From NCBI GenBank assembly GCA_000091205.1, contig AP006496.2: a DNA stretch of 64,000 nt; one strand, 5' to 3'. Source of the stretch: Cyanidioschyzon merolae. Its lineage: Eukaryota. Each line of letters begins with the position of its first letter. The stretch's first letter is position 1. The position numbers and the translations under genes are program-made. Shown piece after piece: positions 1 through 62,522 of the stretch. The notes under the pieces were generated by a model that saw nothing but the letters and a program-made list of their open reading frames with translations, made no database searches and was not told where the DNA came from.

Positions 1-535
1 CTCCAGGAACGTCCTCGCCTACCGGCACAATGGAGTGTATTCGATTTCGAAAATAAGTGGATGCGCTGGGGTGCACACATCAGAACGTCGAAATGGAGGC
101 GAAAGTTCGAGGACTTCTTGAATTGATGAGTTCCACCACAGGTAACGGACACGTGGAGTGCGTGAACCGAGACTTGCACGCCACGAATTATATGAGGCGA
201 TGTGTTGTGCTGATGACGAGACTTAAAGAGCTGACGCCATCCAGCTTTGTGGAGCAGCCTCTCAGGCAGGAATTGCGCCTGGATGAACTGAAGCCGATAG
301 CAGGTGAGCGATCCAAAAAGGCTGGGTGGTGTCAGCACGAGGGTATCCATTTCATCCACATGACCGTAGAACATTTTGCGTTTGACTTACATACATAGGT
401 TCTATTCTGGAGTGACAGAAAGAGCTTGTGGTTGGCGATAACTCTATCCCAGTTCGTGGCAGACGTTATCTTCGGGCACCCGTGCTTGGTACGCGTCTTG
501 CGACGTTCTAGTTGATCTTGAAAGCGCTGCTTGCA
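1..535 (+). mobile_element. Copy C of the Fanzor/TnpB-like element; 3' portion only, truncated by the window start. It holds the C-terminal RuvC-III region and the conserved 3' tail.
   Basis: ORF 57..398 aligns to the C-termini of copies A and B (VEME...AKVRGLL...VNRDLHATNY versus VNRDFNAAINI; tail FVEQPLRQELRLDEL versus FMGQPLKVELYDTKL). The conserved tail motif ttgatcttgaaagcgctgcttg at 512-533 matches B 28219-28243. Confidence 0.6.
57..398 (+). pseudogene. Degenerate TnpB/Fanzor C-terminal remnant. RuvC-III has decayed to NRDLHATNY, and about 40 aa are deleted relative to copies A and B.
   Basis: Amino-acid alignment to copies A and B across the zinc-finger and RuvC-III region. Confidence 0.55.
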
Positions 536-11910: not shown

Positions 11911-12490
11911 TCTTCTCGCATGCAATAGATCGTGTTGCTAGATAGTTGCTCCTTATCAAAGAATGCGGGAAACGGATCCAAGTACTGAATAAAGTGTACT
12001 AGTCAAGGTGGACTTGCCAGTAACAGATCCTCTCTAACCCCAACGTGCTGACCTCTTTCTTCTCGCATGCAATAGATCGTGTTGCTAGATAGTTGCTCCT
12101 TATCAAAGAATGCTGGAAACGGATCCAAGTACTGAATAAAGTGTACTAGTCAAGGTGGACTTGCCAGTAACAGATCCTCTCTAACCCCAACGTGCTGACC
12201 TCTTTCTTCTCGCATGCAATAGATCGTGTTGCTAGATAGTTGCTCCTTATCAAAGAATGCTGGAAACGGATCCAAGTACTGAATAAAGTGTACTAGTCAA
12301 GGTGGACTTGCCAGTAACAGATCCTCTCTAACCCCAACGTGCTGACCTCTTTCTTCTCGCATGCAATAGATCGTGTTGCTAGATAGTTGCTCCTTATCAA
12401 AGAATGCTGGAAACGGATCCAAGTACTGAATAAAGTGTACTAGTCAAGGTGGACTTGCCAGTAACAGATCCTCTCTAACCCCAACGTCGA
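11911..12490. repeat. Intergenic satellite with a 146-147-bp unit, 4 tandem copies.
   Basis: The unit tctcgcatgcaatagatcgtgttgctagatagttgctccttatcaaagaatgctggaaacggatccaagtactgaataaagtgtactagtcaaggtggacttgccagtaacagatcctctctaaccccaacgtgctgacctctttctt repeats at 11914, 12061, 12207 and 12353. Confidence 0.9.
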
Positions 12491-14731: not shown

Positions 14732-15953
14732 TAGCAATGACGACACTCATCGCGCGGGAGAGGCGGTGGAGGTGGCGCTCTATGAGCAGCACAGATATTT
14801 CTCGATGTATCATTGTAAACGCGGGACTTGTAGATTCGTGTCTTTGGCACCAACGGACACCTCTTCTGTACAGAGCGGTGCATGCTGGAATGCTTGTACC
14901 AGTTTATCCTTATTGTTTTCGTTTGTTTCTCGTGCAAGGAGTTCAATAAAAGGAATGTGTCTCGTGGACTGGACAGAGATCGCGGAAAGCTTTGATGTTG
15001 TGGTCGCTATTGGCTTGCGATAATGAGCGACCTGACTATCCCAGGGCTCGGTATTGTCGAGCGTTGGGCATGCGCGCTCTCAGGGCCGTATCGAGAAGCG
15101 CGGAATACCTGGCACACTTCATGCCGTGAGCACACGAGCGATCCAGTGGCACACGCGGACGATCTTTGGTAGGTGTACATGGTGCTGCACTGGGGTTGCA
15201 AAGCGTTTCTTCTGCATGAAGGCAAGAGGCGTGCATTCGCTAACTTGTTCAATGCGTTGGAAAATAAAAAATGACTCCCAATTCGCGTCATGTGGTGGTA
15301 GCCTCCAGCGATGGATGTGCGGTTGCGCGCAAGAGCTGCCTGGTCTCTGCTGCTTCGAGGAGCGCGTAGAACGAGTGCAGGAATCGATGCTGCAAGATTC
15401 ACGTCAACTCATTCAGGACGACGTACAGGCATCACGAGCTCTGGTCAAAATTGAAATACGTAGAGAAGAAGAGAGCGCAACAGAGACGGATGCATGAAAT
15501 GGTGTACGGTATGCTGAGCGTACGTCAGCATGGGTTCCAAGTGAATCCAACGGGCTTGCACAGGTGTGTGTGTGTGTATGTGTTTGTGTGATTCCATCAG
15601 CTACGAAGCACCCATGTACGTTCTATATGGGGAATCGCATGCCCCGACGAACACCGGAAATGTATTGTGCTTCGAGAGCGCCCGTCGGTTTTGTGTGGAG
15701 CGAACTGGCGAGTGAATCGTTTAGTACTCAGTTTGGGCCCTGCGCTGAAACGCTGCAGAGTTTCGATGCAAAGTATCAGTTGCCAGAATCGAGGCGTTGA
15801 AATCTCGCTTGGATCGAGGCACTCTTCTGGTGCGGTCAACAGCCAAGCAAGGCTGGGGCACCATACAGATACACCGGCAACGGAGTTCCTGGAATTTTCG
15901 TGAACAAAAATGGTGTCCCGTGATCCCATGCTCCAGAGTCCAGATCGTTGGGG

Positions 15954-16436: not shown

Positions 16437-16851
16437 CAGCTGCACGCGAACAACTGCAGGCGCAGGTCGAGCCGGTTGTGCGTTTCCGTGAGGACTCCCA
16501 TTGGGCGTTGCTGCGTGCTGCTCAGGAGGTTGCCCAAAACGACGCTCCTCATCAACACCGTCGTCACTGCTGCCGCTCGCCGCTGTACTAGCGTAACACG
16601 AACAGCGCCGACGCTTCGGAGCAACCACGCCCGCGGGCGCTCCGCTGACGCTCCAACGGTGCCCAGGTTGTAGGCGTTGCAAGGTACACACGACGAAAAC
16701 CATACCGGTGTTTACGCCAGAGTCGAGCGTCACGATGTGCAACTTTCAGCAACACTTATGCGCAGTAGATAGTACGTACGGGCGCCGCAGCCAAACGCCT
16801 TTCGAAAGTCGAACGACGTCGGGCGTGTACAGTAGCGGCGACCGGCGGCCT

Positions 16852-19189
16852 AGACGTAACGCTTCCAGCTGGTGTGCAGACGCCTCCCAGCGTTTCTCGG
16901 CGGGCCACGTACTATTTCTTCTAATTTCGTCTCATATACTTCTACTTTTCGAGATTGTCCAACAAAATTCCCTCTTGTCTACTCTGGAGGTCTGTTCTCC
17001 AGCACTGCCCATCTCCGGATATTGATAGCGGCGTTAAAGTCACGATTCACAAAATCCATACGTCTCCTGCAATCTCTGGTTGTACTTTCTGATGCAAGTA
17101 GTCCACGAACTTTCGCTCTCCTTTCAATTTGCTCTTCCGTCAGCGGTTCGTGCTTTGCTATTTCCGAACGGCTCGTTGGCACTTTTCCATCTCCACTGTC
17201 TGAAGTGTACAACCCATTTCATGGTGTGTATAGGACGTTCGGAACTCATGTACAGGTATCGTGAAGAAACGCCTTGCGCACTCTTTGTATGTTCTTGCCG
17301 TTGGAACTGGCGCAGTCCCTTTTTTCGACGCCGAGCACCCTGCTCTGTACGCTACTACGAGCCTCTGACTTTCATCCTCCTTCAGGGCGCTCAACTGATT
17401 GAAAAAATTCGCGAACGCCCGCTGCTTCCCACAATACAAGTTCATTCACAAACGAGCCCACCGGGGCTTGGTATACTCCTCCCACAGCGCCTCCCAATGA
17501 GCAGCGCGAACTTTCATGAATTTCCGAAAAGCTTCAAAGTCCGCTCCTCGGCTAGTCACCTCGCTCAAAGCTTCCATGTGATCCTTCACTCCTGAATTCC
17601 ATTTCTCGATTTTCTTCCTTGCATTCATTATACCGGATTCTCGATAGTATCTTGGTCTCGAGAACCTCAAAAGACGCATGTCTCTCTAACGAAAGTTACC
17701 ACCAGTACTATCTTCCGCACGCTTCGGTGCTGCGATGGTGATGATATTCGTATTCCCGGGGTCCGCGCCAACGACAAAGTCGTTATCTTGTACTTTCTGT
17801 GCCGCAGGATCCGCCTTCTTGTTTTCTTCATGCTTCGTCGCGCCAACGACAAAGTCGTTATCTTCCACTTTCTGGGTCGCAGGATCCTCCTCTTTCTTTT
17901 CTTCATGCTCCGCCGCGTCAACGACAATGTGGTTATCCTCCACCTCCTGCGTCGCAGGATCCTCCTCTTTCTTTTCTTCATGCTCCGCCGCGTCAACGAC
18001 AAAGTCGTTATCCTCCGTCTCCTGCGTAGCAGGGTGCGCCTCCTTCTCATCTTCATGCCTCGCCGCATCAACGACATGGTCGTTATCTTCCACCTCCTGC
18101 ATGAGAGGATCCTCCTCTTTGTTTTCTTCATCCTTCGTCATGGGCGCAGTCGAGGGCGGAATTGGACGATCTTTCTTCAACCGCCGATAGTGTATACACA
18201 TGGCTACTCCATCGGTTTCGATCAACCCAGTAAATACCTTTTGTTTGGTCTCTTTGAGACGTTTGAAATTGAAGATATTCTTCCAGTACGTCTCCCGGTT
18301 ATCACCGGAGAACTCCTTGTTGCTAACATTGAACTCCGGACAGATCTCCTTCATGATGCCATGAAGGATCCTGGAGTCGATACTCACAAAATGTGACTTG
18401 ATGTTGCACAACGGAACCACGTTGAACCGCTTACCCATTAGGAAAGCCTTCTGTCTCTCCCACTCTTCATTTTTCCTCACTCAGCTTCATCTCCGCCTTG
18501 CGTTCGAGTTCTCGATTCAGGAATACGAAATAGAGCAGGATGAGTTGATAGCATCTTTTTTCATCTTTTTTGAACTCTGATATTTTTTCTGTTGGATTCG
18601 CCAGCCCCATGACTGCACGGTGCTCTTGTATAACCGCACGGATTACAGAAGCCTCATTCGTGCTCTCGTTTGGCGCCTTCTTGTCGACAAATTCGACCTC
18701 ATCTTCATACTTTCGATCGTTCGTGATGCCATTGATAATCGCCCATATTCCTTTGCGAGACAGGCCCGGGTAGAGTGGAAACACGGTGCGTATTATGAAA
18801 CGTTCGAGGTTCATTGTCAAATGGTTCTTCAGGTTCGTGATGTGCTTCATCGCCCCGTAGCCGTAAATACCCCGGTCACCCTTGTATCGAGTACCGTTGA
18901 AGCTGTAAAAGGGATGTTTTTCGTGGGGGCCATGCACTAGCACATTTTCCCTCCGCGTTTTCTCTCCACCAAGCATCAGGTGTCGAATAAAGGTGATGTC
19001 GAAAAACTCGTCTGGAATCTCGACCGTTTCGATGTGCGTCACGTCTTTGTACATCTCCCTCGCCAAATGCATCAGCCCTGACGACGCCTTGACAATACTC
19101 TTGGAGTACGAGTCGACGCGTTTTTCGATAGCGTCTCGCAACTTTTCCCTGTACGGATCCTTGATATGGCCAAGAAGAAAGGCTCTCAT
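16852..19189 (-). pseudogene. Fanzor1-like (TnpB-like) RuvC nuclease gene, disrupted. Ruv[18 protein letters not shown], RuvC-II region IPVHEFRTSYTHHE, zinc finger, RuvC-III VNRDFNAAINI.
   Basis: Main ATG at 19189. One frameshift near KAEMKLSEEK/EWERQ. Nonsense TAG where B has CAG (GGNFR*RDMRLL). Frameshifts at PRWARL/MNLYCG and after MEKCQR. Nonsense TAG where B has TTG (RPPE*TRGNF). The coding tail ...RGNFVGQSRKVEVYETKLEEIVRGPPRNAGRRLHTSWKRYV* is conserved with B at the amino-acid level. Confidence 0.75.
17745..18125 (-). repeat. In-frame 75-bp coding tandem repeat, about 5 copies, encoding roughly [25 protein letters not shown], inside the Fanzor-like ORF just upstream of RuvC-I.
   Basis: Period 75 nt (for example 17877 and 17952). 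Copy B has about 2 units (27.16-27.26 kb). Confidence 0.85.
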
Positions 19190-19399
19190 CACCTTCTCGT
19201 CGTACAGTCGTCTTTCTTGCCGCCTTCGACGTAGGACCTCTCCCCTTCGGTTCTTTTTCTTCTCCTTTTCTTCTGGGCTCGGCACTGTTTTTCGTTTTTT
19301 CTGGCAGCCAGCGATACTGGGCCTCCAGGATCGTCGACTTGCTTTTTCATAGCTTTCCTTTTTCAGTTTTTTTAAATGAACCCGCTGTGAATGCTTCGG

Positions 19400-19406
19400 T
19401 TATATA
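19400..19406 (-). promoter_or_regulatory. Conserved TATATAA box about 50 bp upstream of the uORF ATG (19350) of element copy A.
   Basis: cgcagTATATAAccgaagc in A aligns to cgcggTATATAAcagaagc in B (25857-25863) within the conserved 5' end. Confidence 0.45.
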
Positions 19407-20799
19407 CTGCGAAAAAACACTTGGCCAGACTTGTTTGAGGGTTGAAACACCAATGAACTGAAAACTATATTTTTGTTCGACTCCGACGCAAATACAACTT
19501 TTACAGCTGAACAACACGCTCCTGGTCAGCATCGCGGTTCCTTTCAACGGCGGCATGTGCATCGCGTCAGTTGACTGCCTGATCTCCGAGATGCGTTCAT
19601 TAAGCGCAATGCGTCCATCGCACGAGACGCCACTCCAGTCGATGAAGGACACGTGTCCGACACCCCGCATTGGCACATGCGTGTTCGCATCGCATTGCAG
19701 CCAAACTAAAGTATCGTAGATAGGAAACTCACGTAGAACGATCTCTTGCTATAGACGCTGTCGCTGGTGCCGAAGCTACTGCCCATCGCAGTACCGCCTG
19801 GACATACATGGAAATGTTGGGACCTAACGCGATACCTCGTGATGCTTCTATCAAAAGCGTAGCGTTCTCTGCGGCTTACCGTTGTGTGGATGACGTATGC
19901 ATCACTCTTCTCACTAGGAATTTCGTTAGTTTTATTCATCGTAACCAAACTAGGTACGGTGGGATTCCTGAACACGGACATACGTTTAATGCCGATGCTT
20001 GTCACGCATGCTACACTGACGCTGGAATGAGGAACTGACCTGAATTGTGCTTCTATCCTGCGTCATAGGCTGGTACTGATGACCGTTCAAGTCATTTCCA
20101 TGCTGCTGTCGTTGTCTAACTTATGGTGCCTGCTTCGTCCTCCGGATCCGGTGATCTTGGCAGAGGCATAGCACACTCGACCGGCCCCCTGCTATCGGTT
20201 TCAGCTTCTCCTTGTTCACCTCTGGCCTGGGAGGTTCCCCCAGAAAGTTGGACCGCGTCAGCTCCGCCGGTCGCGCGTTCATCACCATTCATCATCTGAT
20301 ATTGATGGCGTTTTGTCTGAAACGCTCGTGATAGAGCTGAGGTCAAGAAGCGATCAATCTTGACCGACGCTATCAAACGAGCGGTACCAGAAGCTGAGGG
20401 CTGCAGCCGGCACCAGGTGCTCTGATGCCTACATGCTGGCCGTGAATAGTGCGTGACGAAGTCGCACAGCATGCCACGGTTTCCTAGTACGTAAACCAAG
20501 CACGTATTCGAAACGTTCGGGTTCAGTGTGATGACGAGTCGCCGCTACGGCATTCTGGGAAAATCATCCGAGTGCGCTATGGTTGTTCGAACATCGAGCA
20601 TCATCACGTGTATGGGTGCGTTTCACTGCACGAGTTGCAACGATCATCGAATCCACCATCATCCAAAAGTGACGAAAATTTACAAGCGTACCGGGCTCGC
20701 ACCTCCAGGTCAGGACGTGCCCACCAGCACGCAAACAAATTTCGTGCCCTGCTGTGCTTTCACCAAAAACGAAAGGAAACATGCGTTTCCTCGACCAGG

Positions 20800-21994: not shown

Positions 21995-22428
21995 CCTAGG
22001 CCGAAGCGAACCCAGAGGCCTGCGGCGGCTGTAGCTGTAGCTGCAGCGGTGGTGGTGGTGGTGGTGGTGTCCAGACCCAACGCCCTGCTGCACCGTTCCG
22101 AGGGCGTGTCGGCGCCATAGCGGCGCTTTACTGCCACTAGCAAGCAAGGCCCGTGTACACACCGCGCCACTACCGAGGTCAGCGCGTTTCCCGACCGATC
22201 CCGCAACAGGTACTGATACAAAGCAACTGATTCCTACCATTTCCGTCTCTCAGGGTCCTGCTTGTGTGGAGTACACGTTGCCCAGCAAAGCACCAGCGTA
22301 GAGCAGTCGCCACAACGATCTCCGCGCCTGTGCGCTGCGGCTGGCGCACTGCCGCATCTCATCGAGGCGAGATCGCGGCGCCTGGAAGTGGACATCAGCG
22401 GCGGCAGCGGCGGCAGCGGCAGCAGGTG

Positions 22429-22630
22429 TCACGAGCACGGGGTGCGGACATATACCAACGAACATACGGTGTGTCGATGGGTGCTGCTTTGGGTGTCACG
22501 CGCACGGGGTTCCGAAGTATATCAGTGAACATACGATGTGTCGATGGGCGCTGCTTTGGGTGTCACGCGCACGGGGTGCGGACGTATATCAGTGAACATA
22601 CGGTGTGTCGATGGGCGCTGCATTGGATGA
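22429..22630. repeat. Tandem repeat with a 67-bp unit, 3 copies.
   Basis: gtcacg(c)gcacggggtgcggacgtatatcagtgaacatacggtgtgtcgatgggcgctgctttgggt at 22429, 22496 and 22563. Confidence 0.85.
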
Positions 22631-24406: not shown

Positions 24407-25065
24407 TCAAGCACCAGCGCTGTAACAATGCTGGCTGGGATCCGAGCCCAAGATGACGTAGGTGTAAATTTCGTCGTTCAGCATTTGTGCGGTATACGAT
24501 GCGATAAACTTGTACCGACCAGAGGTCAGCGCTGAACGGAATACCCGTTCCATCTCTGGAACCACCAGCATTGCAGCTTCAAAGGCCTCCCGTCCAAAGA
24601 GGCCCTCGCCGCCGTATGCATACGGACTCGACCAGTTGAAATAGTGCGCTGGCAACTTTGTGGCATGCGCAGCGCCCATATAGTCGGTGCTGGTCCAGCC
24701 GCCCACGGCGAGCGCTGACTCGACAGCTGCCCGTCCGAGCGCACTGCAGTTGCCAGCGGCCACGTCTGCTATCGGACACTCCACCATGTTATCCACGACG
24801 TTCGCAGCACCAATGATCAGTCCCTTGTTCAGACACAGGTCATGATCAAGGTCTGCAAGCGCATTCATGATGGTAAAGTCGTATTGCGACACGTTCAGGG
24901 CCATAGCGTCGGTCTCGTTGATGTAGATGCCACCGAGCGCCCTGCTCGGCACCCGCAGGATACTCTCTTCGAGCGTCTCGAGGTTCAGCGGCGTAACCAC
25001 TGTCGCAGCACAACGAGACAAACATCCCGCAAGCCCCCACAGGCTAAGAAAAGCGAAAAGAAGCC
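24407..25065 (-). CDS. Secreted Cys-containing protein with a signal peptide and N-glycosylation sites; unknown family. Paralog of the gene at 30544..31191.
   Basis: Signal peptide MRAWLLFAFLSLWGLAGC. Shared C-terminal motif LGSDPSQHCY and overall about 40% identity with the paralog. ATG at 25065. Confidence 0.55.
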
Positions 25066-25856
25066 ACGCTCGCATATTAATCAGAACAGAGCCACGTTCC
25101 AGGAAAAACAGCAATGTCTCTATCGTGGGTGGTGCTGCATTGGGGATCAAGGCGCACCGCGTGTGCGTGCGTCTGTGCGCGGAGCGCCCTGCGGCGAACA
25201 GGCCCCGGTGCAGGCCCTGCGAGACGCCGCGGTGGCACCACCGGCGCACGCCTCGGGAGCCGGCACACTCGATCCGTGGCGATCGAACAGGCCCAGCGGC
25301 AGCGCCAAAATGGGCGTTCGGGACGTCGGCGGCGCCACCAGCATCAGCGATCGGCGCCAGATTAGGAAGCGATGCGTGCCGGCGCGCGCTGTTTCCGACG
25401 TTCCAGGCGTCGACGCGTCGATGTCGGTGGTGGTGGCTGCGGGCGCCTGCATCTCCACTTAGGTGAGGGCGGTACTGAGATGGGCAGGAGCGTCGGCACC
25501 AGCGACATAGCATAGAGCAGGAGTGCATTCTACGTGAATTTCCAATCTAGGACACCTGATTTCAGCTGCAGTGCGATGCGAACACGCATGTGCCAATGCG
25601 GCTTCGGACACGTGTGCTTCATCGATCGGAGCAGCGTCTCGTGCAGTGCACGCATCGCGCTCGGTGAGCGCACCCCGGAGATCAGGCAGTCCATTGACGC
25701 GACGCGTATGTCGCCAATGAGGGGAAACGTGATCTTGATCAGTAACGTGTAGCCGCAATGTAAAATTGTAATTTCATTGAGTTCGTATCCAGGTATAGTT
25801 TTTATTTCAATTGTGCTTCACCCTTAAAACAAGCGTAGTCAAGTGTTTTCTCGCGG

Positions 25857-25863
25857 TATATAA
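25857..25863 (+). promoter_or_regulatory. Conserved TATATAA box 56 bp upstream of the uORF ATG (25919) of element copy B.
   Basis: Aligned with the copy A TATA box within the conserved 5' end. Confidence 0.45.
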
Positions 25864-26079
25864 CAGAAGCGTTCAAAGAACGTTCTTTTTCAAAAAAAAA
25901 TCTAAAAAAAGGAAAGTTATGAAAAAGCAAGTCGACGATCCTGGAGGCCCAGTGTCGCTGGCTGCCAGAAAAAACGAAAAACAGTGCCGTGCCCAGAAGA
26001 AAAGGAGAAGAAAAAGAACCGAAGGGGAGAGGTCCTACGTCGAAGGCGGCAAGAAAGACGACTGTACGACGAGAAGGTG

Positions 26080-28177
26080 ATGAGAGCCTTTCTTCTTGGC
26101 CATATCAGGGATCCGTACAGGGAAAAGTTGCGAGACGCTATCGAAAAACGCGTCGACTCGTACCCCAAGAGTATTGTCAAGGCGTCGTCAGGGCTCATGC
26201 ATTTGGCGAGGGAGATGTATCGCGACGTGACGCACATCGAAACGGTCGAGCTTCCGGACGAGTTTTTCGACATCACCTTTATTCGACACCTGATGCTTGG
26301 CACAGGGGAAGCGCGGAGGGAAAATGTGCTAGTGCATGGCCCCCACGAAAAACATCCCTTTTACAGCTTCCAGGGTAATCGATACAGCGATGACGGAAAT
26401 ATTTACACATGCGGGGTAATGAAGTACATCACGAACCCGAAGAACCATTTTACAGTGAACCTCGAACGTTTCATGATACGCGCCGTGTTTCCACTCTACC
26501 CGGGCCTGTCTCGCAAAGAAATACGGGCGATTATCAATGGCATCACGAAGGATCGTAAGCATAAAGATGAGGTCGAATTCGTCGACAAGAAGCCGTCACG
26601 CAGGAGCACGAATGAGGATTCTGTAATCCGTGCGGTTGTACAAGAGCACCGTGCGGTACTGGGGCTGGCGAGTCCAACGGAAAAGATATCAGATTTAAAA
26701 AAAGATAAGGAAAGATACTATCGCCTCGTCCCGCGATATTTTGTGTTTCTGGACCGAGAGCTCGAACGCAAGGCAGAGGTGAAGCTGAATGGGAAAAATG
26801 ACGAGTGGGAGAGACGGAGGGCTTTCCTAATGGGAAGCGCTTCAACCTCGTTCCAATGTGCAACATCAAGTCACATTTTGTGAGTATCGACTCCAGGATC
26901 CTTCATGGCATCATCAGGGAGATCTGTCCGGAGTTCGATATAAGGGAGACAGAGTTCACCGGTGAAAACCGGGAGACATACTGGAAGAATATCTTCAATT
27001 TCAAACGTCTCAAAGTGACCAAACAAAAGGTATTTACTGGGTTGATCGAAACCGATGGAGTAGCCATGTGTATACACTATCAGCGTTTGAAGAAAGATCG
27101 TCCTGGTCCGCCCTCGGCGAACCACGAAGATGAGACGGAGGCGGTTCCTGCCACGTAGAAAGTGCAGGAAAACGACTTTGTCGTTGGTGCGGCGAAGCAT
27201 AAAGATGAGGAGGAGGAGGATCCTGCGACGCATGAGGTGGAGGATAACGACTTTGTGGTAGGCGTGAACCCCGGGAACACGAATATCATAACCATCGCTG
27301 TATCCAAGCGTGCAGAAGATGGTACTGACGGCAACTTGCGTCAGAAGACATGCGACTTTTGAGGTGCTCGAGAGCAAAATGCTATCGAGAATCCGGTATC
27401 ATGAATGCAAGGAAGAAAATTGAGACATGGAATGCAGTAATGAAGGATCACCCGGAAGCTTTGAGCGAGGTGACGAGCCGCGGCGGGGACTTTAACGCTT
27501 TTCTGAAAATCATGAAACTTCGCGTTGCTCGTTGGGATGCGCTGTGGGAGGAGTATACAAAGCCTCGGTGGGCTCGTCAACGTATGAAACTATACTGTGG
27601 TAAGCGGCGCGCGTTCGCGAATTTTTTCAATCAGTTGAGCGCCCTCAAAGAGGATGAAAGTCAGAGGCTCGTAGTAGCATACGGAGCAGGGCGCTGGAAG
27701 ATCCAAAAAAGGACTACGCCAGCTCCATCGACAAGAACGTATAAGGAGTGTGCACGGCGTTTTGCTACAATACCTGTTGATGAGTTCCGAACATCGTATA
27801 CACACCATGAACGGTGATGTACGCTCCAGAGAGTCGAGATGAAAAAGCGCCAGAGGAGCCCTGAGGATATAAAAAAGTACGGAGCGCAAACGGAAGAGCA
27901 AATGGAAAGGAAAGCGAAAGTTCGTGGACTGATCGCATTGGCGAGTACAATCAATGGCAAGAAACGTATCGAATTCGTGAACCGAGACTTTAACGCCGCC
28001 ATCAATAGAAGGAGATGTGCGGCGATGGAGACGAGACCTGCGGAGTTGACAAGAGAGAATTTTATGGGGCAACCTCTCAAGGTGGAATTATACGATACGA
28101 AGCTGAAGTCAGTAGTAGGTGGCCGGTCGAGAAAGACGGGGAGGCGTCTGCATTTCAGTTGGAGACGTCTCGTCTAG
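26080..28177 (+). pseudogene. Fanzor1-like (TnpB-like) RuvC nuclease gene, disrupted. RuvC-I has mutated to GVNPG (D to N). RuvC-II IPVDEFRTS, RuvC-III VNRDFNAAINRRRC.
   Basis: Main ATG at 26080, overlapping the stop of a 53-codon basic uORF (25919..26080, TGATG). A 1-bp indel at AFLMG/KRFNLV. Nonsense TAG at VPAT*KVQ where A has CAG. A 1-bp deletion at RQKT/MRLL. TGA at HHER*C where A has ATGGGT. Elsewhere continuous where A is broken. Confidence 0.75.
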
Positions 28178-28724
28178 GACGAGTTCGCCGCCACTGCTGT
28201 ACACCGCTGGCGGCAGCGTTGTTCTTTTGGAAAGCGTTTGTTGTTCGTGGTGCTCTTGCCGTTTGTCTCATGCGCGTTTGAAGGTGCGAATTTAGCAAGT
28301 CGAGTTGGGCTCGTCACGGGTGTGTGTGCACCGCAGGCGCGGGCAACGTGGTACACGACGCTCGTACCTCCACGGATGCTTCCAAGTGAACCACTGGTGC
28401 CGGACTGGTGTTCCTCTCAGAGATAGTGGTTTAACCGTTTCCGTTTCCCCGCGGTTGCTGAGCGCAGAAGGGACAGCTTTGCTGTACGAATGGACGAATA
28501 TCGCTTCGAGGTGCACTGTCCAGCATACCGGGCATAGAGGCTGATAGATCGGGCGCTTTGGTATCGGTGCGTTGCGAAACCGCGCAAGGTTCAAGAAGCA
28601 TGCAGTCCGCTTTACTTTCTGGATTTTTGGCACCAGTGCCCATATACGGTTGCTCGAACCGAATACAGTGCTTTCGCTAGGCGCTAGCGGCAACGGAGCT
28701 CAATGATCATGCGCTGCTCCAGTG

Positions 28725-29156
28725 TCAGAGAGAAATGGAGCTGGTGTGCTGATTCGGGTGTATTCGCTGAAGTTTTGATTTCTTTCCCTTGTGATGCGCA
28801 CCAGCTTTTGCGGACATCTTCCGCGCCCGCTTCCTTTTCGTATCTCGCATATCGGCCTCGGAATACGCCGGTGCCGTGTCTCGCCTCAGCTGCGGTGTCA
28901 GCAGCGGAAGGATGTTGATGACAGCGTTGGAGCCCGCGTTTCGTTGTTTCCCACTGCTGTTGGAGCATTTTACGCAGAGGCGCAAGTTCCTATCTACGAT
29001 TCGCTTTCCTTTTTCTGCTTCATTGTATGGAGCGTCGGTGTGCTCTTCACAGCCGTCATACGTGACTGTGGTGAGGTGTTTTCGTATATCCATCACTAGA
29101 CCCTTTCTCCTCCTCCTCCAAGGTTTTTTTGCGATGTGGCGCATGAACGCTTGCAT
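28725..29156 (-). pseudogene. Relic of a second, divergent TnpB-like family: zinc finger plus degenerate RuvC-III. Possibly extends to about 29.85 kb.
   Basis: RIVDRNLRLCVKCSNSSGKQRNAGSNAVINI follows the C..C-(x)-NAAxNI layout. It is 17/30 identical to the relic at 60.7 kb. Weaker upstream similarity LLAVVYEKKSHTC...GTAPAGSRP to Fanzor LVVAYGAG...RTTPAPSTR. Confidence 0.4.
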
Positions 29157-30543
29157 CAGCGCTCGGTACGTGTCCTCGACTGGTACAGATGGCTCTTTTC
29201 GATGTTTTCATCAGGCGCCGCGCCCGGTGCTGTGCCCAGTGATCACGGCTCGCGTCAGACGATTCCCTCGGCGAGTACTCTGTCCACCGCACATGCAAGC
29301 GAAGGCTGTTCCACTCGATACGGGATTAGCGGCACCCGATATCGTCCGTAATCAAACAAGTGCGGGAAGGGTAATCCAGTTTAGAGAAAAGTTGAGAACA
29401 TTCGATCCGTCTCCGTTCCCTTCGCGCACAGCAATGACGCACTCTCTAAAGGGAGCGGTCGCTTCGATGACGCAAGTCGCACTCTGAATCCAAGACGATT
29501 TTCCATGCGAACACACGGGACGAGAGCCCGCTGGAGCAGTTCCCGCAAAATGTTTCGTACAGGTGTGAGATTTCTTTTCGTAGACGACCGCTAAAAGAGG
29601 CGGATTTGTGTTTTTCGAACGGAATCGATAAATTGACATGACAAGTTCAGTGGTCTTTTGGCAAGAGTTTTTGATCAAGAGGTCATGGTGCGACGTCGAG
29701 GATGCTTCTGCGTCATTCCAGCGGGGCGAGTTGCCGCGCGCACGAGTTTCCATGCAGGATATTGATCGAAAACTTGAAGAATACATGGTTTGAGCGTGGG
29801 GCACGTAGGGATCGGAAAAGGACGGAGGAACACAGGTATGCATTGGATAACGATATCGGTTATTTCACGAACCCTCGCTCGAGGGCGTCGCAAATCATCG
29901 CGATTCAACGGACGTCACGAATTCCAGCTCTGTACTGTATCGAAAGAGCCTCCCAAAGTAAATATGGCCGAGAATCACTGACCTACATATCCATCCGTAC
30001 GCCCGTATTGTTGCGCTTAGAATACCGCGGTTGTAGACCCAAGAACGCGTTCGGAATAGAGTCGGAAAGCAGGAGCAGAGTGAGCAGTTCAGTGCTCCAG
30101 TTGAGAGCCTGGCACGCGTATGAGCTCGACGCGCGCATCCATCGCCTGCCGCCGTGCACGGCAATTTGCCAGCGGCGGAAATCATCGCGCCATCGACAGG
30201 AGCCACTGTGCGCGCTGAACGACGTCGCCTTGCTGTGGGCGCGCCTCGACCCGAACGCGTCGGTGTTTGCTTCACAAAATCGCGTGCAGCAAAGGCATCG
30301 AAAGACGGGGATTCGGAGCGGCTCATGAGCGCGCGCACCATGGAATGCGTGACACGTGTCCCACAGCGGCGCGGTGACGTGCACGTGCCGAATTTGGCAG
30401 CGCTGTGTGTTGTATTGGGATGTGGATGCGGTGCGAAACGCTCGGTGTGTATCGACACGAACGCATTTGCATGTTTTTTTGCGACTGTAGCAGATACTTC
30501 AAGGCTAACCTGTGTCTTCGACTACAAGTCGTTTATTATTCCG

Positions 30544-46758: not shown

Positions 46759-49537
46759 GGCGACTTAAAAGCCTTGCCTCTGAACCAGTGCTTGTCCAGG
46801 TTTTACGAAATGCACTGCAAGCACTCGAACAGCGTTCGCACACACACACACACACACAAGCGCTGACACGCGCTGGTGAGGCAGCACGTCGCTCGTACGA
46901 CGCGTTCGCCGGGCGCCGCCTGCAGCGCGTTCGGCGGCAGCCTGCCACGGAGGCAGTCATCGATGAGGTCGTCGACACCCTGGTCAATGTGAAATGGAAC
47001 AGGTCTTCTCATTGTTACGTACGTACCATAGGCATGTGTCTTTTTAAAGGGTCATTCACATCAACGTTCGTGGGCATAGTGTGTGATTGTTTCCTTCTTC
47101 TCCTTCTGATCCGCGGTTTTGCCTCCAGCTCTGGTGTCAGCGGTCTGAGGATATTGATGAAGGCCGTAGTCGGGTCCCGATTTCACGGTATGCAGTTCAT
47201 GTCAACGCATTTCATGCACACATGGTCGTTGTGGTCGACGCTCCTCTTGCCGTTATCATTTTCATTGTATGAAGCATCGGTGCGCGCATCGTTGCGCTGG
47301 CACCATGCTGTGGTCGTCTGCTTTCATATACAGCCACGACACTGGATGCATCGAGATTCACGCTGTGGTGGATGACGGCTTCAGCAAACGCTTGGTTCAT
47401 GCCCTTGACAGGTAAAGCTGGCGCTCATCGATACCGTCATCTGTTTCCGGGCCGGGTATCATTCGCCAGGAACACAGGCTCGTGCTGGGCGACGCAGTTG
47501 GCGCGTACGCTGTCTGCTGCTCACGCATGCAGATGCTGCTCCATTCGAGGGAGGATTTTTGGAATGCGATGTTGCTCATAATGACATAGGTACCGGAAGG
47601 AAAATTCGGGCTGTAGCACAAGCCGGGAAATTTGAATCCGCCTAATTTCCATTGGAAAAGATCGCTACAATGACTGAAATCCGTGTTCAAGCCCCCTTTT
47701 CCATGCAAACAGAAGAGGTGGCAGCCTCTGAGCGTATATCCAGTCAGAGGATTCTTGCTAATGCAGTCGAATGGCGTTTCTCTCGTAGCCGCAAAGCGAG
47801 ACGGATTTGTCTTTCGATTCAAAATCGATTCAGTGGCGTGACAATTTCAGTGAACATACGACATGAGCAGCTGGCCAAGTCGTCCGGGGACAGCGTCGAG
47901 GATTTTTCGTCGCCAGGCCGGCAGCTCGAATTGTTGCGCCCACGAGATGCCCTGGAACAGACAGATCGGAAACTTGAAGAACATGTGATTCAAGCATCTG
48001 GTATCGAAGATACGGCGAAGAATGGAGCGTTCTGAATATGAATTGGGCCACGATATGGGTCGCTGGAGAGAGCCAGGTTCGCGTGCGTCGCGAATCATGC
48101 TGATCACGACGACGTACCGTGTGGTAGCGGCAAAGTGTCGCACGAACGGGCCACTCCGATAACACGACCGAGAATTCTCAGGCTACGTGCGAGTCCGTAA
48201 AGCGTCATTCGCGAACCAAGAATGTCAACGGTGTACATATAGAAAAAAGTACGAGGAAATTCGCCTGGCAGGTACAGAGCGAACAGTTCAGTTTTCCATT
48301 TTAATCTGGCACAGGTGCAGCACTGGATAATCGATGAGCCTGATTGAACTTTTTCAGCTGCGCGCACCAAGTCCTCGACTCTTTTGCAAGCACTTGTACG
48401 TTCTACCATCTTCAGCGCAGTGTTCCGCGATGGACTAACAACCCGGTCTATGGAACTCTAGCGCCCGAAACCTCTGCGCATAGCGTTCCGCGCGATCACC
48501 ATATCCTTCTGGAGCTGGCGGGCAGTGCATGTGCTCCTCGCGTTCTACCAGAGCGTCTCTGCTGCTATGCAAGCGAATTCGCAACACAAACATGAACAAA
48601 ATCAAAACACAACTTTACTTGTAGCTCCATACCGAATACCAACATACGGGGTCTTTCGGCGGCATTTCACAAGCCAGTTCGAAGCGTAGACGTACAAGAC
48701 TGATGTCGACGAGCGTCGCCGCTCGTTGCAGCGCCCACATTACCAACGCACTGGATCACCTTAGCGCGTCGGTTGTGACGCCCCTCGGGGTAAACCAGAA
48801 ATGGTTTCTCGACTAGAATCACGAGACATAGCAGCGAAGTGACGGATGTTGGGATTCAGCAGCGCGCCCCACCTGAGCACGGTACCCGCACGCGATCGTG
48901 CACCCCAAGCCGCGGCGACTCGCAGCACATCAGGGCTAGTGCTCGTTCGAGGCGTGATTTGCTTACGGGCTTGCAAGCCATACTCATATCCTACCAGTTG
49001 TCTCCGTTCATCTCATGTGTTTATGGTTGGTTAGGTTTCGCAAGTATTGCTGCGAACGCGAGCAGAGCGCCTCATTCGCATATGTGCCTGCTCTAGTCTG
49101 CGACACCGAGGATCGGCACAGATATGGGAAAAGATTCACGATCGACTGGCCCGACTGCCAGACTCGCAAACGACATGGCATTCGACATTAGTGCACTGGA
49201 ATCTCTTCACCGGTTACCGAACATATCCGAGCTACCTCGTAAACCAGGTTCATTTCATCATGAGTACACCAGCATCGAAAAGCGCCTGCGTGAACGAATC
49301 AGGTCGTTCGGGTGTCCAGCGCGACGATCGCCGTACCGGCGTTGCGAGGCGTTCCTTGCGTCGCCGCGACCGCAACAGCAACAGCAAAAGCAAACAACCT
49401 TACGTCTGCCTAGGGGCCTACGCTAGGGCCATTGATAGGGAACCGCGAGCCTCCCTTACCGTGACGCTGCCGCTCGACGTGTACGTGTGCGCAAACTCTG
49501 CCTTGCCGCGTGGTCGAGACCCTGATCCCTGTTCGGA

Positions 49538-56041: not shown

Positions 56042-56984
56042 GAACGAAACGCAGCGGATAATTGCGTTGGGCGTGCGCTGCTGTCGCCGCATGCACGCCA
56101 TGTGCTCTGCGATACAGAAGAAACGTAAGAAAAGAAAAATGCGCATCATCGGAGAACGCTGGCCTAAGTAACCGTTTTGTCCATGAAAAAAAATGCCCTC
56201 TGCGATATGCCTTCGATGCCGCGCTGCTGTTCGATTTTCACCGCGTACACACAAACAAACAAACATACACACACACGTGTGGATACAGGGACCATGCGCG
56301 TTTGCCTGTTCTTCGCTTCAGTCTATGCATGAGAGGAACGATATCGTCCAGCATGGGTCCTGACAGATGGTTCCTGGAAGCGATAAGCGGTGGCAAGGAA
56401 CTGATGACCGCTGAACTCTTTATTGTCCTGCAAATGGCATTCCAGATTGCGCATCGCCTCGTGCGTGCTATGCCGCATGGATGCTACTGTTCGGGAGATG
56501 TGCCGTGCTACGCGCTGCAATGAAAGGTCTTCTCGTGATCGGTGTTTGTCCGGTACCAGCAATGCTTTCATGAATCGTTGATACAAGTTGCAGTCCAGTG
56601 CACAGAGGTTCTGCCGCCTCTGATCGTTTCCGCTTGTATCTCTCGGGAGTGCGACGTGGAGGCGCACAGCCCGGGTCTCCGAGCGCTCATCGAGATTCCC
56701 GCCAGTAGCGTCCAGGGAAACGCGACTCTCCCGACCAAGCGACCACCCCGCTGCATGCCCGCTTGTATATCTGGACGGCATATCAATGCACAGGACGGCG
56801 TGATCGAAGAGGCAGCGTCGAAAGCCGTGCCCGCTTTCACGCTGAGATCACTCGAGGCGCCGGGGAACATACGGCCTCGTGCCGATGCCCCTAGAAGCAC
56901 CACAATGCCGTTCTGGCTCGGTGCAGCGACCACAGCTGCACATCCAGTATCGTCGCAAGCGCCTGCGATACGCCCAGCACGTGC

Positions 56985-57110
56985 AAAATGACCGGAACGG
57001 ACGGATCTCTATACCTATGGAGAAACGTGGCGCGGGGCCTCACGTGGAAAATGACCGGAACGCACAGATCTCTATACCTATGGAGAAACGTGGCGCGGGC
57101 CCTCTAGACT
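56985..57110. repeat. Direct repeat of 63 bp, 2 copies.
   Basis: aaaatgaccggaacg(g/c)ac(g/a)gatctctatacctatggagaaacgtggcgcggg. Confidence 0.85.
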
Positions 57111-58692: not shown

Positions 58693-60519
58693 ACGGGCCC
58701 GAGATCACTGCGTCAGTGTGATGCATCTGGGAACGGGAAACAGCGCAGACGGTTGGAGCAGGTGCTGGTGTTTCTGTCCGGCTGGGGTGTACTCGATGGG
58801 TCAAGTGTGCATCGGGTGCACAGCCGCTGCGTGCTTGTTTCTGATAGTGCGTGAAGGACACTGGGGATTTTGCTCGCGCCGATGCCCACTGCTATATATG
58901 GCAAAGCGTTCTGTCTCCGTGATGCATTGGTATCAGCGGCAGAGGCGCCGTTGCGGATGCAGCAGGACAAGCATTCGGCGAACGATAGAACGTATGAAGC
59001 GACCAGTATATCCGAGAAGAAGTTTGGGATATGCAACTTGGGAGCAGGGCGTAGAACGTTGGTTGCTTCACCGCGTGCCGATCATAAGCGCACAGGCGGG
59101 GAACGTGGGTCTGTGTTCAGGTTTTTTCCATGAAAAAGAGAACTGGATTATCTCGGCTGTGCATGCAGGTTGGGGATTGGGCTGGCACTGAGGGCGGCGG
59201 CGGCGGCGGCTTCTCGTGCATCTCGGGGCGTCGGAGTGCCAGAAGAGCATTTGTTCAGGCTCGAGCGTTGCCCAGGAGGATATACTGCAGCGATCGCGCA
59301 GCATCCGTGCCCGACTAGGATTCAGGTTCTGCCAAGCACCAAGTCCTGGTCGAAGAACGACCGACACCCGCGTGCCTCATCATTGTTCGGATCGTGCGAG
59401 CAACCCTTCGTTGTAGTGACGCGAGGCAGGGCGGCGCGAGACAGGCCCAGAGGGCAGTCTCGGGTTCCAGAAGGGCCACCCTCCGAAGACCATTCTCTGC
59501 AAAAGCCGCCACTTGACGTAACAGTCATTCGCATGCGTCCAGCGTTCGAGGCAGGCATTTGCGTCGCTCGGGGCGCGTACTCGATGCCGGTACGCTTCGC
59601 ATGCCGACGGATTCTCTAATGGCTGAGGTGCGGGTCATCGTTGGCAGATTCCAGTCCGTCGCCGAAGCCGAGAGTCGCTTGTCGTTTGCCTCATTCCGTG
59701 TCGAAAACGGGCGCCGAACCACATGTACCACAAGATGACGCCCAAGTCCAGTCGATTAGGCCAATGCCCCGGCACGATCACTACGGATACACCAACTGCA
59801 TTCATGTCATGCGTCTGGTGCCGCAGGCAGCAGGCACTAGCTACAAACGGGTCCTCGCCCGCATCCAGGGCTAGAGACTTGACGCCAAATGCTCGCGACG
59901 CCACGCGTTCCAGTTCCGTGCCTCTCATCCGATGGCACTTGGATGCACGCGCATCTGAGAATAGGGTAACGCTGAGTCGCAAACGGGTGTTCCGCAGCGG
60001 ATGCTGGGCTCCGTGGGAAACGCGTCGCACGTCCGACAGGGTCAGGAGCCTACGCAGACTCGACATCGCCTGGTGATCAGAGACCGCGACCTCGGATCGA
60101 TGTACAGAGCTCCGGAGCCGTTCACGTAACGAAAGACAAATCCTCCTCTCTTTGAGGCCATCAAAGAAAAGGCACTCCAAAGCGGATTGTCATCCATCCT
60201 GGGATATGATTGCAGAGGAACCCGTCTCTTCTGGTTGCATGGAAAAAGGTCAGGTGCACGGGCTTGCGTCATGGTAGCGATCGCGTCCGGTACATGGTGC
60301 CGCACCGCGTTGCGCGAATGGAGTAGAGACGGGTCGATATTTATCGACTCGTGCGTCAGTGTGGATTTTCCTCCCTGCACTTGTTTCATCATGAACAATA
60401 TCGTGCGCCACAAGTCCTCTATTGAATGGAACAGCGTGCGTTTGCGTGTCTAGCGGACAGATAACTTGGCCAGGGCATCGCCCAGAGCGAGCCCCTGATC
60501 GTAGGCGGAGGCATCAGGC

Positions 60520-60846
60520 ATGGAAACGGAGCAGGGCATCGATCGAAGCCTTCACCACCCGCCAGAGGCATGCACCGAGCGCTGGGGCAAGCGTTCACGC
60601 GCCACAGGGCGCGCCCCTCGATGGGGAAGCGGTATGTTGAATATCCAGCACCAACAGAACACAGTCGAGTGTGGGCGCTGCAAACAGCACATCGAGGCTG
60701 AATGCAAGGAAGATGAAAATCGGCAGCGAAGCGTTGATCGCAACGTGCGCGTGTGCATGTCGTGCGCGAACTACAGCTGGAAGCAGCGAAATCGGGACTT
60801 GAAAGCCACCATCACGATCCGTCGAGCGCCAAAAGCGTATCAGTAG
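60520..60846 (+). pseudogene. Isolated TnpB-superfamily C-terminal relic: CxxC...CxxC zinc finger plus RuvC-III. Same divergent family as 28725..29156.
   Basis: ECGRCKQHIEAECKEDENRQRSVDRNVRVCMSCANYSWKQRNRDLKATITIRRA follows the canonical C..C-x20-C..C-x8-RD.xA.I.I layout. Confidence 0.5.
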
Positions 60847-61028
60847 GACAAAGACAAAAGACTGGTTCATGGAAAACCGGAAATAAGAGATACGGACAGG
60901 AAGCAGACGCAGAAAACTAGCCCGTAAAGACCTACATTCACGACACTGGAACACCACCAAATTTTAGCGTGTGCGCCCGAGTCACAAAACCTGTTCCACT
61001 TTTTATTCTTACGCGGCTATAGCACTAT

Positions 61029-62522
61029 TCAGTTGGATTGCAACGGGGCCAGAACACCTCCGGAAAGGTGCCTGATGGCAGCGTACATCCCTACCAGCGC
61101 CCGAGCATATGGATGAAGGCCCTGCCTCGGCGGCGTCACGAGGAAGCGTTCGCGCCCAATGCCCAGCGTGCCCGCAAACCTGCTTATATACAAGTTCCAT
61201 ATCCATTCGAGGACACGCAGCGGTACGAACGCAGCATGAGCGATTTCATGCGACTCCAAGTTCCCATAACACGACACCAGCACGCCGTTCACCAGCAGCG
61301 TTCCCGCCTCCGTCAGCGGCGCATAGGCATCTGCGTGCCGCACGCGCGTCATCGACTCGATGCGCTCGAGGTGTCCGTTCGCGCTGCGCACGTACACGCC
61401 CGGGTGCAGGCGCCGGGCCAGTCGATACCCCCCAGCCCCCAGAGGTGCATCTGTAGCCCATATTAAATGATTTTCCGTGATCTCGAGCAGCTGCCTCGTC
61501 GTCGTGATGCGCAAATACGGAATTGCGCTACCGTGTGGGATACGATCTACGAAGCCGTAGACGCGAGTGGCTACTCGCCTGGGCGTCCCCGATGGGTGCT
61601 CACCCGCGCTCAGGGTCATGACTTGGTCTCCGACGCGAAGTTCGCGCATACGCACAGCGCTGCCGTCGGGGCGCTCGACCAGCGCATCACCCGGGAAACA
61701 GACAAATCCGGATCCACTCGAATACGAGGGCTGGAACGCACCCGCTGCCTTACCGCTGTGCGGCTGATACAGCGGAATTTCGGTTTGTACCGGATTTGGG
61801 GGACATTTCGAGTTTCCGTTGAACTCTCGACACTGGTTTTGAGTGTCATAGGCGATCGTCATGTTGATATTGGAAACAAATCGCAGGTCGAGAAGTGCGG
61901 TGCACTGTGGCGAGATGCCAACGAAACCTGCCTCCGGCAAGTCATAGCTCTCACCGGGATTCAGTGTGAATACAAAGCATATGACTCGACTATCCTGGCC
62001 TATGGCAGCAATTGGTAAACTCGCACTCGAGCCTGTCAACGCAGGGTACGGTCCCGCGGCGATGAAAGCGAGGTTGTCCTCCAGGTACGCGGGCCAGAAC
62101 GCATCACCGAGACAATACGTTGACCCCGGCTGCTGGAGAATGCCGCGGTTGAGAGCAACAGCACCGCTCTCGTTCGTCGGGTTTTCGAAGGTCCACATGA
62201 CAACGCCCTCGTTCTGGTTGAGCCACTTCCAGCTCACACGCAGCCCCTGGTCGCTCACACACTCCTGACCGTCTTCGAGCGGAGCCGGTGGCGGGCTTAC
62301 CGGAGACGGCGCCGGCGCTGATCTCCCAAGGGTTTCCAGCTCCGCGTCTACATTCAATACGAGCCGGCTTGCACAGCCCCGCCCGGTACGCCCTCGGCCA
62401 CTTTCGGGTTGCGTCGCCGCACCGAACACTTCACGACGAGTAACGACAGCACTACTGACGAGGCTGCTGAGGCTCAGAACCAGTACTATCGCCAGTACTA
62501 TTTGCGTACCGTTTCTAGTCAT
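61029..62522 (-). CDS. Secreted Hedgehog-type Hint (Hog) domain protein.
   Basis: N-terminal signal peptide. C-terminal Hint module CFPGDALVERPDGSAVRMRELRVGDQV...ITENHLIWA...YAPLTEAGTLLVNGVLVSCYGNLESHEIAHAAF. Confidence 0.75.
   Translation of the reverse strand: MTRNGTQIVLAIVLVLSLSSLVSSAVVTRREVFGAATQPESGRGRTGRGCASRLVLNVDAELETLGRSAPAPSPVSPPPAPLEDGQECVSDQGLRVSWKWLNQNEGVVMWTFENPTNESGAVALNRGILQQPGSTYCLGDAFWPAYLEDNLAFIAAGPYPALTGSSASLPIAAIGQDSRVICFVFTLNPGESYDLPEAGFVGISPQCTALLDLRFVSNINMTIAYDTQNQCREFNGNSKCPPNPVQTEIPLYQPHSGKAAGAFQPSYSSGSGFVCFPGDALVERPDGSAVRMRELRVGDQVMTLSAGEHPSGTPRRVATRVYGFVDRIPHGSAIPYLRITTTRQLLEITENHLIWATDAPLGAGGYRLARRLHPGVYVRSANGHLERIESMTRVRHADAYAPLTEAGTLLVNGVLVSCYGNLESHEIAHAAFVPLRVLEWIWNLYISRFAGTLGIGRERFLVTPPRQGLHPYARALVGMYAAIRHLSGGVLAPLQSN

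Follow-up and report, generated by a model that had tools for sequence, protein, structure and literature searches.

The 64,000-nucleotide window of Cyanidioschyzon merolae 10D chromosome 14 analysed here (contig AP006496.2, taken as one whole stretch) contains two short cysteine-rich open reading frames (ORFs), one of 143 amino acids at 28725-29156 on the minus strand and one of 108 amino acids at 60520-60846 on the plus strand, and it raises the question of what these ORFs are the remains of. The original prediction took them for C-terminal relics of a second TnpB-like family, distinct from the A/B/C family of the same window, which corresponds to the published C. merolae Fanzor1 family CMe-1A. 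Our analysis suggests that they are probably the 3' parts of decayed copies, three in all in the window, of one non-autonomous transposon of the Tc1/mariner-IS630 superfamily. This element is about 1.4 kb long, and in it the remnant of a DDE transposase is followed by that of the C-terminal end of a Fanzor1 protein.

As had been predicted, the two ORFs are alike, with 25 of 62 residues identical (BLASTP E 4e-14), including the VDRN.R.C..C.N.S.KQRN motif and the N..xxA.I.I tail. This likeness is not due to chance, because the DNA underlying both ORFs also aligns, across 542 bp at 66% identity (E 3e-28). Only two relics had been counted, but the window holds three copies, as tblastn located a further one, with an in-frame stop, at 47174-47323 on the minus strand. 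Homology among the three loci reaches about 1.4 kb, well past the ORFs, at a DNA identity of 65-69%. The three frames upstream of the ORFs were about equally conserved in tblastx, as in DNA that has decayed and unlike an ORF that is being maintained. The copy that holds the first ORF (c1) is full length, covering 1404 bp at 28717-30120 on the minus strand, and is defined by an nhmmer score of 1230 bits, by mapping of its terminal inverted repeats (TIRs), and by its unique flanks. The second ORF lies in a 5'-truncated copy (c2) at 59912-61019 on the plus strand (nhmmer 866 bits, positions 271-1414 of the hidden Markov model, or HMM), which is without the first ~270 consensus positions; at its other end, the 3' TIR reaches to 61019, with TA directly after it. 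The third copy (c3), missed in the original prediction, is again full length, with 1342 bp at 46976-48317 on the minus strand (tblastn, nhmmer 1131 bits, and TIR mapping). A (CA/TG)n microsatellite is found at 46880-46930, just beyond the 3' end of c3.

Together with 11 copies from contigs of related Cyanidioschyzon strains from hot-spring metagenomes, which were obtained through CMe-1A proteins and ORF fragments of the relic family, the three window copies make up a family set of 14. A DNA HMM of the family detects copies in the window and in the related contigs at 300-1230 bits (nhmmer), and the ends and the internal order are identical in all of them. Identity to the 14-copy consensus is 73-78%, and stops and frameshifts are present in 14 of 14 copies; all copies are pseudogenic and have no present function. 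The repeat is bounded by 26-bp TIRs with the consensus CACCCGTGTCAGAWTAAAATGGAACA, and alignments of the 5' ends (6 copies) and 3' ends (8 copies) show sharp borders, beyond which the sequence is unique. The two consensus TIRs agree at 24 of 25 positions when the 5' TIR (ACCCGTGTCAGATTAAAATGGAACA) is set against the reverse complement of the 3' end (ACCCGTGTCAGAATAAAATGGAACA). In c1, the 6-copy 5'-end alignment and TIR mapping place a decayed 5' TIR (TACGCGTGCCAGG...) at 30095-30120 on the minus strand, and the 8-copy 3'-end alignment and TIR mapping place the 3' TIR (..CTCCATTTCTCTCTGACACTGGAG) at 28717-28742 on the same strand. A pattern search matched the latter at 28720-28741 with 3 mismatches, for a chance expectation of 0, and the first ORF runs into this 3' TIR, within which its stop codon falls. 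Of 19 scorable ends, 7 are flanked by the dinucleotide TA, for an expectation of ~1 and with the boundary set after inspection of the data, and 18 have a flanking dinucleotide at most one substitution away from TA. This TA bias is informative for the pooled ends and not for single copies. An internally deleted copy of 464 bp (locus L006, 14944-14481) consists of both ends only and resembles a miniature inverted-repeat transposable element (MITE).

Profile comparison identifies the upstream part of the element as a remnant of an IS630/Tc1-mariner transposase with a DDE_3 domain. The DDE_3 profile (PF13358, cut-off 28.6 bits) scores 17.1 bits on a consensus of 3 copies, 35.7 bits on one of 10, and 41.5/43.8 bits on one of 14, while the NCBIfam model transpos_IS630 (NF033545) matches with an E value of 1.7e-8, though far under its equivalog cut-off of 100. 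The 14-copy consensus restores AIDETAF (D1), GYAPRGSR, and FIMDNIAFHKS (D2). Within the window, consensus profiles trace this remnant at 29269-29617 (minus) in c1, from the D1 region via D2 to an EYSP motif and interrupted by stops and frameshifts. In c2 it lies at 60130-60471 (plus; RKTNPPLFEAIKEKAL..GYDCRGTRLF..FIMNNIVRHKSSIEWNS..), with the D2 motif mutated to FIMNNIVRHKS, and in c3 at 47499-47816 (minus; RKTNPSRFAATRETPF..GYTLRGCHLF..VIMSNIAFQKSSLEWSS..TAYAP). The DDE_3 alignment stops short of the catalytic E, at position 117 of the 146 in the profile, where the YSP motif lies. No third catalytic residue can be recognised in the consensus, which leaves the D,D,E/D triad incomplete. Two candidate motifs were dropped, 'YSPRRSPRRSPW' as an SPxLNPxE..W motif and 'IDESHLYQSRACTERW' as a TS..C..C motif, because that stretch reads as Fanzor1 (VIVGYGTG..PVKG) in another frame. 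No intact transposase ORF was found in any of the 14 copies, nor an intact homologue in protein searches. BLASTP of the DDE consensus against the transposases of PUl-1 and PUl-2, which are Fanzor1-carrying Mariner elements of Pythium ultimum, gave no alignment, but phmmer succeeded, showing the consensus to be collinear with both targets from D1 to D2 (E ~1e-6) through the motifs IDEtAF, then QGSvD..F, then DN..H.

The downstream part of the element is, by the same kind of comparison, the last ~150 amino acids (~20%) of a Fanzor1. The Cas12f1-like_TNB profile (PF07282, the former OrfB_Zn_ribbon; cut-off 26.3 bits) scores 14.9 bits on the 3-copy consensus and 21.2 bits on the 10-copy consensus, and on the 14-copy consensus it scores 26.2 bits with the whole reconstruction and 29.1 bits with the C-terminal piece. 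The scores of both DDE_3 and TNB thus climb with consensus depth, as expected of real ancestry. NCBIfam guided_TnpB also matches (E 0.003), at model positions 334-388 of 389, which is the very end of the model. Two Fanzor1 HMMs were built from sequences in the supplement of Bao & Jurka (2013), the longer one from 12 oomycete Fanzor1 proteins. With the short C-terminus HMM, the relic consensus scored 40.1 bits, compared to 31.7 bits for the bona fide CMe-1 tail and 16.9 bits for the best of 20,000 shuffles. With the longer HMM it scored 48.8 bits (E 6.5e-13; best of 20,000 shuffles, 11.5 bits) in an alignment that runs ..KKPVIVGYGTG..EPSVPVKGMYRAMKQ..VDIRKHLTTVKCHRC..CMKC..NRDLNAAINILRLL..ERPAYL. 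An hhalign comparison of 12 frame-corrected copies with an alignment of CMe-1A-type Fanzor1 proteins gave 95.3% probability (E 2.2e-8) over 130 columns, equivalent to residues 597-746 of a 752-residue Fanzor1; with the wrong upstream frame, the profile comparison covered only 39 columns at 45%.

The consensus also retains much of the signature D-X(125,275)-[TS][TS]-X-X-[C4 zinc finger]-X(5,50)-RD that we used for TnpB and Fanzor proteins (Bao & Jurka 2013). Its motif is LTTVKCHRC-x21-CMKC-x10-RD, and RuvC-III reads NRDLNAAINIL. The remnant spans a RuvC-II-proximal segment, the [TS][TS]xxC4 finger, RuvC-III, and an RPxx tail, and features specific to Fanzor1 (YG.G..P.PVK, the DE.RTS-position, and the RPxx tail) fall within the profile similarity. 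The prediction that the cysteine-rich motif is a true TnpB/Fanzor C-terminus is borne out by these profiles of the 14-copy consensus, with their [TS][TS]xxCxxC, CxxC, RDxNAAxNIL, and RPxx elements. It had also been proposed to extend the alignments upstream in search of RuvC-I and RuvC-II remnants, and ~55 more amino acids of RuvC-II-proximal Fanzor sequence were indeed recovered (VIVGYGTG..PSVPVKG), but no remnant of the RuvC-I aspartate (GxDPG), expected 125-275 residues upstream, was found in any consensus frame. Both the Fanzor1 HMM and the hhalign alignments stop ~150 amino acids from the C-terminus, and upstream of this point lies the DDE_3 remnant in another frame. In the window, the Fanzor1 remnant of c1, including a basic tail, was placed at 28770-29252 (minus) by tblastx and projection onto the consensus, with the motifs AVITGHSTG, PSVPVEDTY, MDIRKHLTTVTYDGC, CVKC, NAGSNAVINIL, and APAY. 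In c2 it is found at 60489-60965 (plus; PLIVGGG..PSPPARGMHRALGQAF..NTVECGRCKQH..VCMSC..NRDLKATITI), a stretch that encloses the second ORF, and in c3, with in-frame stops, at 47030-47481 (minus; ..PALPVKGMNQAF..TTAWCQRN..VCMKC..*NRDP..INILRPL).

The significance of these matches is carried only by the family consensus, as the single ORFs score at the level of shuffles and have no match in Pfam. Each of the two ORFs alone, as well as fragments of CMe-1A copy B, gave no Pfam match at E<=10. Against the Fanzor C-terminus HMM, c1 and c2 alone reach ~15 bits, about the level of the best among 20,000 shuffles. A check with the OrfB_Zn_ribbon profile, which had been suggested, is therefore positive for the 14-copy consensus, which exceeds the Pfam cut-off, but negative for the single ORFs. 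Searches of PDB sequences with single sequences and two family profiles returned only noise. The individual motifs tell a similar story of decay: the first CxxC is intact in the 60.5-kb copy only (CGRC) and reads YDGC in c1, and the RuvC-III RD is kept as NRD in the 60.5-kb copy but has become AG in c1 (NAG). The two ORFs are accidental open stretches of the Fanzor frame and encode nothing functional.

The lineage also stands apart from CMe-1A, as the original prediction had it. In pairwise comparisons with Fanzor1 proteins, the best match was PUl-2 of the oomycetes at 24 bits, while CMe-1 reached 13.7 bits (33% identity over 63 amino acids). The relic is at roughly the same distance from every Fanzor1 protein compared, and it is a separate lineage rather than a diverged CMe-1A. 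There was no blastn match to the CMe-1A copies of the window or of locus L001 (consensus against L001, element flanks against all loci). A search of 5.8 billion sequences with the three-copy consensus protein gave no match at E<=10, and a nine-row profile searched against the same number recovered only 10 decayed ORF fragments, all from this lineage; intact relatives and proteins combining DDE_3 with TNB were absent from its matches. A scan of metagenome contigs with the consensus protein yielded 86 pattern matches, 0 of which were confirmed.

In 9 of 11 copies, the anchors of the transposase frame and those of the Fanzor frame differ in phase by 2 (mod 3); their most frequent spacing is 80 nt. 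Anchor spacings within each part are multiples of three in nearly all copies. A single fusion ORF, which had been suggested by a three-copy consensus biased towards c1, was rejected on this anchor spacing, the two parts being out of frame in those 9 of 11. In c2, a 4-nt insertion merges the transposase and Fanzor frames. The junction lies within consensus nucleotides ~790-860, equivalent to ~29320-29250 in c1, and the Fanzor homology begins at one shared point in all 12 of the copies that span the region.

Elements that carry both kinds of gene have been described. Bao & Jurka (2013; PMC3627910) reported Mariner-type Fanzor1 carriers, namely PUl-1 and PUl-2 from P. ultimum and PGv-1 from Phaeocystis globosa virus. 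PUl-1 consists of a TIR, a 308-residue IS630-like transposase, an 802-residue Fanzor1, and a second TIR, measuring 3620 bp in total with TA target-site duplications (TSDs), and such Mariner-Fanzor1 elements have TSDs of TA, TIRs of 24-33 bp, and lengths of 3.4-4.4 kb. The element described here resembles PUl-1 in that both genes, each truncated in our case, lie in the same orientation within one TIR-bounded unit, the transposase 5' and the Fanzor1 3'. It differs from the PUl and PGv elements in that the transposase is cut back to its first ~2/3 and Fanzor1 to its last ~20%, the two being out of frame with each other, and also in its length of 1.4 kb, its unrelated TIRs, its red algal host, and the fact that all copies are dead.

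We infer that the founder of the family arose by an internal deletion of ~2.2 kb in a Mariner composite of the PUl-1/PUl-2 type, with the order TIR, transposase, Fanzor1, TIR. Such a deletion would have removed the end of the transposase from about or just past the YSP motif, including the third catalytic residue, as well as the first ~80% of Fanzor1 with RuvC-I, running to Fanzor1 residue ~600-650 and fusing the two remnants out of frame. With both TIRs kept, the derivative could have been mobilised in trans by a transposase cutting at the TIRs and pasting into TA; the family amplified and has since died out. The 3620 bp of PUl-1 approximate the sum of the 1.4-kb element and the postulated 2.2-kb deletion. 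Several points weigh against this reading. The ancestor is hypothetical, because the protein and metagenome searches turned up no full-length composite and, for either half, no intact relative. The TIRs of the element have no similarity to those of the PUl elements, and no single copy has an intact TA/TA pair, c1 being flanked by CA/CA. In addition, the consensus mixes C. merolae 10D copies with those of related hot-spring metagenome strains, and the junction is placed only to ~70 nt, because the local alignments of both frames overlap there.

Among other explanations for the joined remnants, we consider it unlikely that a Fanzor1 fragment became joined to an unrelated IS630/mariner element by nested insertion or template switching and that the hybrid then amplified. 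This would predict the same product as a deletion in a composite, so that the two are indistinguishable with the present data, and Bao & Jurka report many chimeric Fanzor elements. An example of such a juxtaposition is available in locus L014 (10001-11415), where a 5'-truncated copy of the relic family begins within ~70 nt of a likewise 5'-truncated CMe-1A 3' end, downstream of it and pointing the same way, a pair that gene callers merged into one ORF of 342 amino acids (P0050). This is a true juxtaposition of CMe-1A and the relic family, unlike what is seen in the window. However, the Fanzor remnant lies beside the right TIR and in the orientation of the transposase, exactly as a prior composite predicts, and the DDE half is similar to transposases from Mariners that carry Fanzor.

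We regard as quite improbable a natural fusion, in which the element would have been autonomous and encoded one transposase of ~370 amino acids with a DNA-binding domain recruited from a TnpB/Fanzor zinc ribbon and last helix. The length and TIRs are typical for autonomous elements of mariner size, the basic tail after the RD motif resembles a nuclear localisation signal, and both parts share one frame in the c1-biased three-copy consensus. Yet this frame is lost in the 14-copy consensus, where the parts are out of frame as they are in most single copies, and the early end of the DDE_3 match leaves such a transposase without a recognisable third catalytic residue. The ~55 amino acids of Fanzor homology upstream of the zinc ribbon (VIVGYGTG..PVKG) also overlap the segment where the end of the transposase would be needed, and the protein profile search found no protein of this architecture.

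The original prediction itself implied independent C-terminal relics of a second full-length TnpB/Fanzor family, each cut short or eroded where it stands. In favour of this are the genuine Fanzor-type C-terminus and its distinctness from CMe-1A, but independent erosion would give differing break points and not the shared start seen in every spanning copy. Every copy examined has the identical truncated Fanzor tail and DDE_3-type sequence upstream, where RuvC-I belongs, within the same TIRs, and no RuvC-I remnant survives in any frame of the consensus; we therefore hold this explanation to be highly improbable. That the motif is part of an unrelated cysteine-rich host gene, or a likeness due to chance, as the lack of Pfam or PDB sequence matches for single copies might suggest, has next to no probability given the family-level profile statistics and the fact that the loci are dispersed TIR repeats not conserved as ORFs.

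The 3' region permits one further reading of the element. The Fanzor tail ends ~70-90 nt before the right TIR, a geometry that fits the position of a guide RNA (omegaRNA/fRNA). The retained Fanzor 3' end and right TIR would in that case encode a putative fRNA, making this a non-autonomous 'guide-only' element, and the reading would include mobilisation by a mariner-type transposase along with retention or homing by a Fanzor1 nuclease in trans; we consider both parts very unlikely. If true, a guide-only element would be the counterpart, in a eukaryote, of TnpB satellites that consist of a guide RNA only. Folding of the consensus gave no support to a structured fRNA in this region, its stability being within the range of shuffles (z = -1.23, with 26 of 200 shuffles as good).

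Returning to the proposed deletion derivative of a Mariner-Fanzor1 composite, we compared it with other known systems. It resembles IS630/Tc1-mariner elements and their MITE-like derivatives in its TIRs, putative TA target, size of ~1.3-1.4 kb, and ends-only copies, as well as in a DDE_3 domain with DE..GxxxRG..DNxxxHKS motifs, but a Fanzor/TnpB tail takes the place of the transposase C-terminus. With prokaryotic TnpB (IS200/IS605, IS607) and Cas12f it shares the C-terminal TNB zinc ribbon and the RuvC-III RDxNAAxNI, whereas RuvC-I, a WED/REC domain, and TnpA are absent here, and the RPxx tail and YG.G..PVKG segment are of the Fanzor1 type. CMe-1A is listed as the sole Fanzor family of C. merolae, with ~150 copies, a length of 3169 bp, no TIRs, and no known TSD or transposon class (Bao & Jurka 2013; PMC3627910). 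It resides in the same genome, shares the C-terminal signature (NRDFNAAINI, compared to NRDLNAAINIL in the relic) and RPxEL tail, and is of similar age, its copies being ~80% identical to their consensus. In contrast to the relic, CMe-1A carries a complete Fanzor1 and is without TIRs. There is no DNA similarity between the two, their proteins are ~25-33% identical over the 130 shared columns, and the zinc-finger cysteines, kept as C4 in the relic lineage, have been lost in CMe-1.

In the window, CMe-1A forms an inverted pair of ~3-kb elements plus fragments, and its reconstructed protein has 49 homologues. Copy A (16797-19816, minus) and copy B (25450-28236, plus; context outside the element, defined by inverted-repeat pairs with copy A) are 75-91% identical and bracket ~5.6 kb that includes the gene CMN280C (24407-25528). 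It had been claimed that one relic abuts the 3' end of copy B and that this adjacency suggests nested or serial insertion. However, the 3' end of copy B is at 28236 and that of the element at 28717, and the two lie tail to tail with 480 bp of unique DNA between them, which provides no evidence for nesting within the window. A 75-bp tandem repeat that encodes acidic units lies inside the CMe-1A ORF (17763-18137 in copy A, 27115-27345 in copy B), and its number varies, with ~5 units in copy A, ~1-2 in copy B, and several in the related protein P0001. Further coding fragments of CMe-1A are present at 75-338 (plus), 15146-15438 (plus), and 20178-20309 (minus; tblastn, 36-55% identity), giving at least 5 CMe-1A pieces in the window. 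Another CMe-1A copy, in L007/L008, adjoins an ORF pair for a reverse transcriptase (RVT_1, 814-2710), presumably one of the non-long-terminal-repeat retrotransposons reported for C. merolae.

The rest of the window has long intronless ORFs that code for proteins of eukaryotes (glucosidase II beta, Avl9, a Na/H exchanger, an ABCG transporter, and a Hint-domain protein), and five of these ORFs match C. merolae 10D proteins exactly (CMN280C to CMN297C). The Hint-domain ('hedgehog-like') gene (61029-62522, minus; CMN298-region) lies directly downstream of c2. Intergenic tandem repeats are found at 11911-12487, 587-766, 22425-22629, and 56978-57103, and their kinds include 147-bp units identical across at least 3 copies, 28-31-bp units, 67-bp units, and a 63-bp doublet.

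The copies themselves have no engineering value, but they make a point of method, as single decayed copies were negative in profile searches while the 14-copy consensus passed curated cut-offs for two domains. Only eight class II elements have been reported in the C. merolae genome (Nozaki et al. 2007), and the P-MITE survey names it as the only plant or algal genome in which no MITEs were found. Very poor in transposable elements as it is, this genome nevertheless contains several old copies of an element with TIRs. Our literature search on Fanzor in Cyanidiales found nothing beyond Bao & Jurka (2013), so far as that search reached. The relics represent a second, extinct Fanzor1 lineage in a genome with one published family, and this lineage, unlike CMe-1A, can be tied to a transposase of the IS630/mariner type with TIRs and a putative TA target. 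The element is probably a further case of the known Mariner-Fanzor1 composite type, which would extend to red algae an association known earlier from oomycetes and algal viruses (Bao & Jurka 2013).

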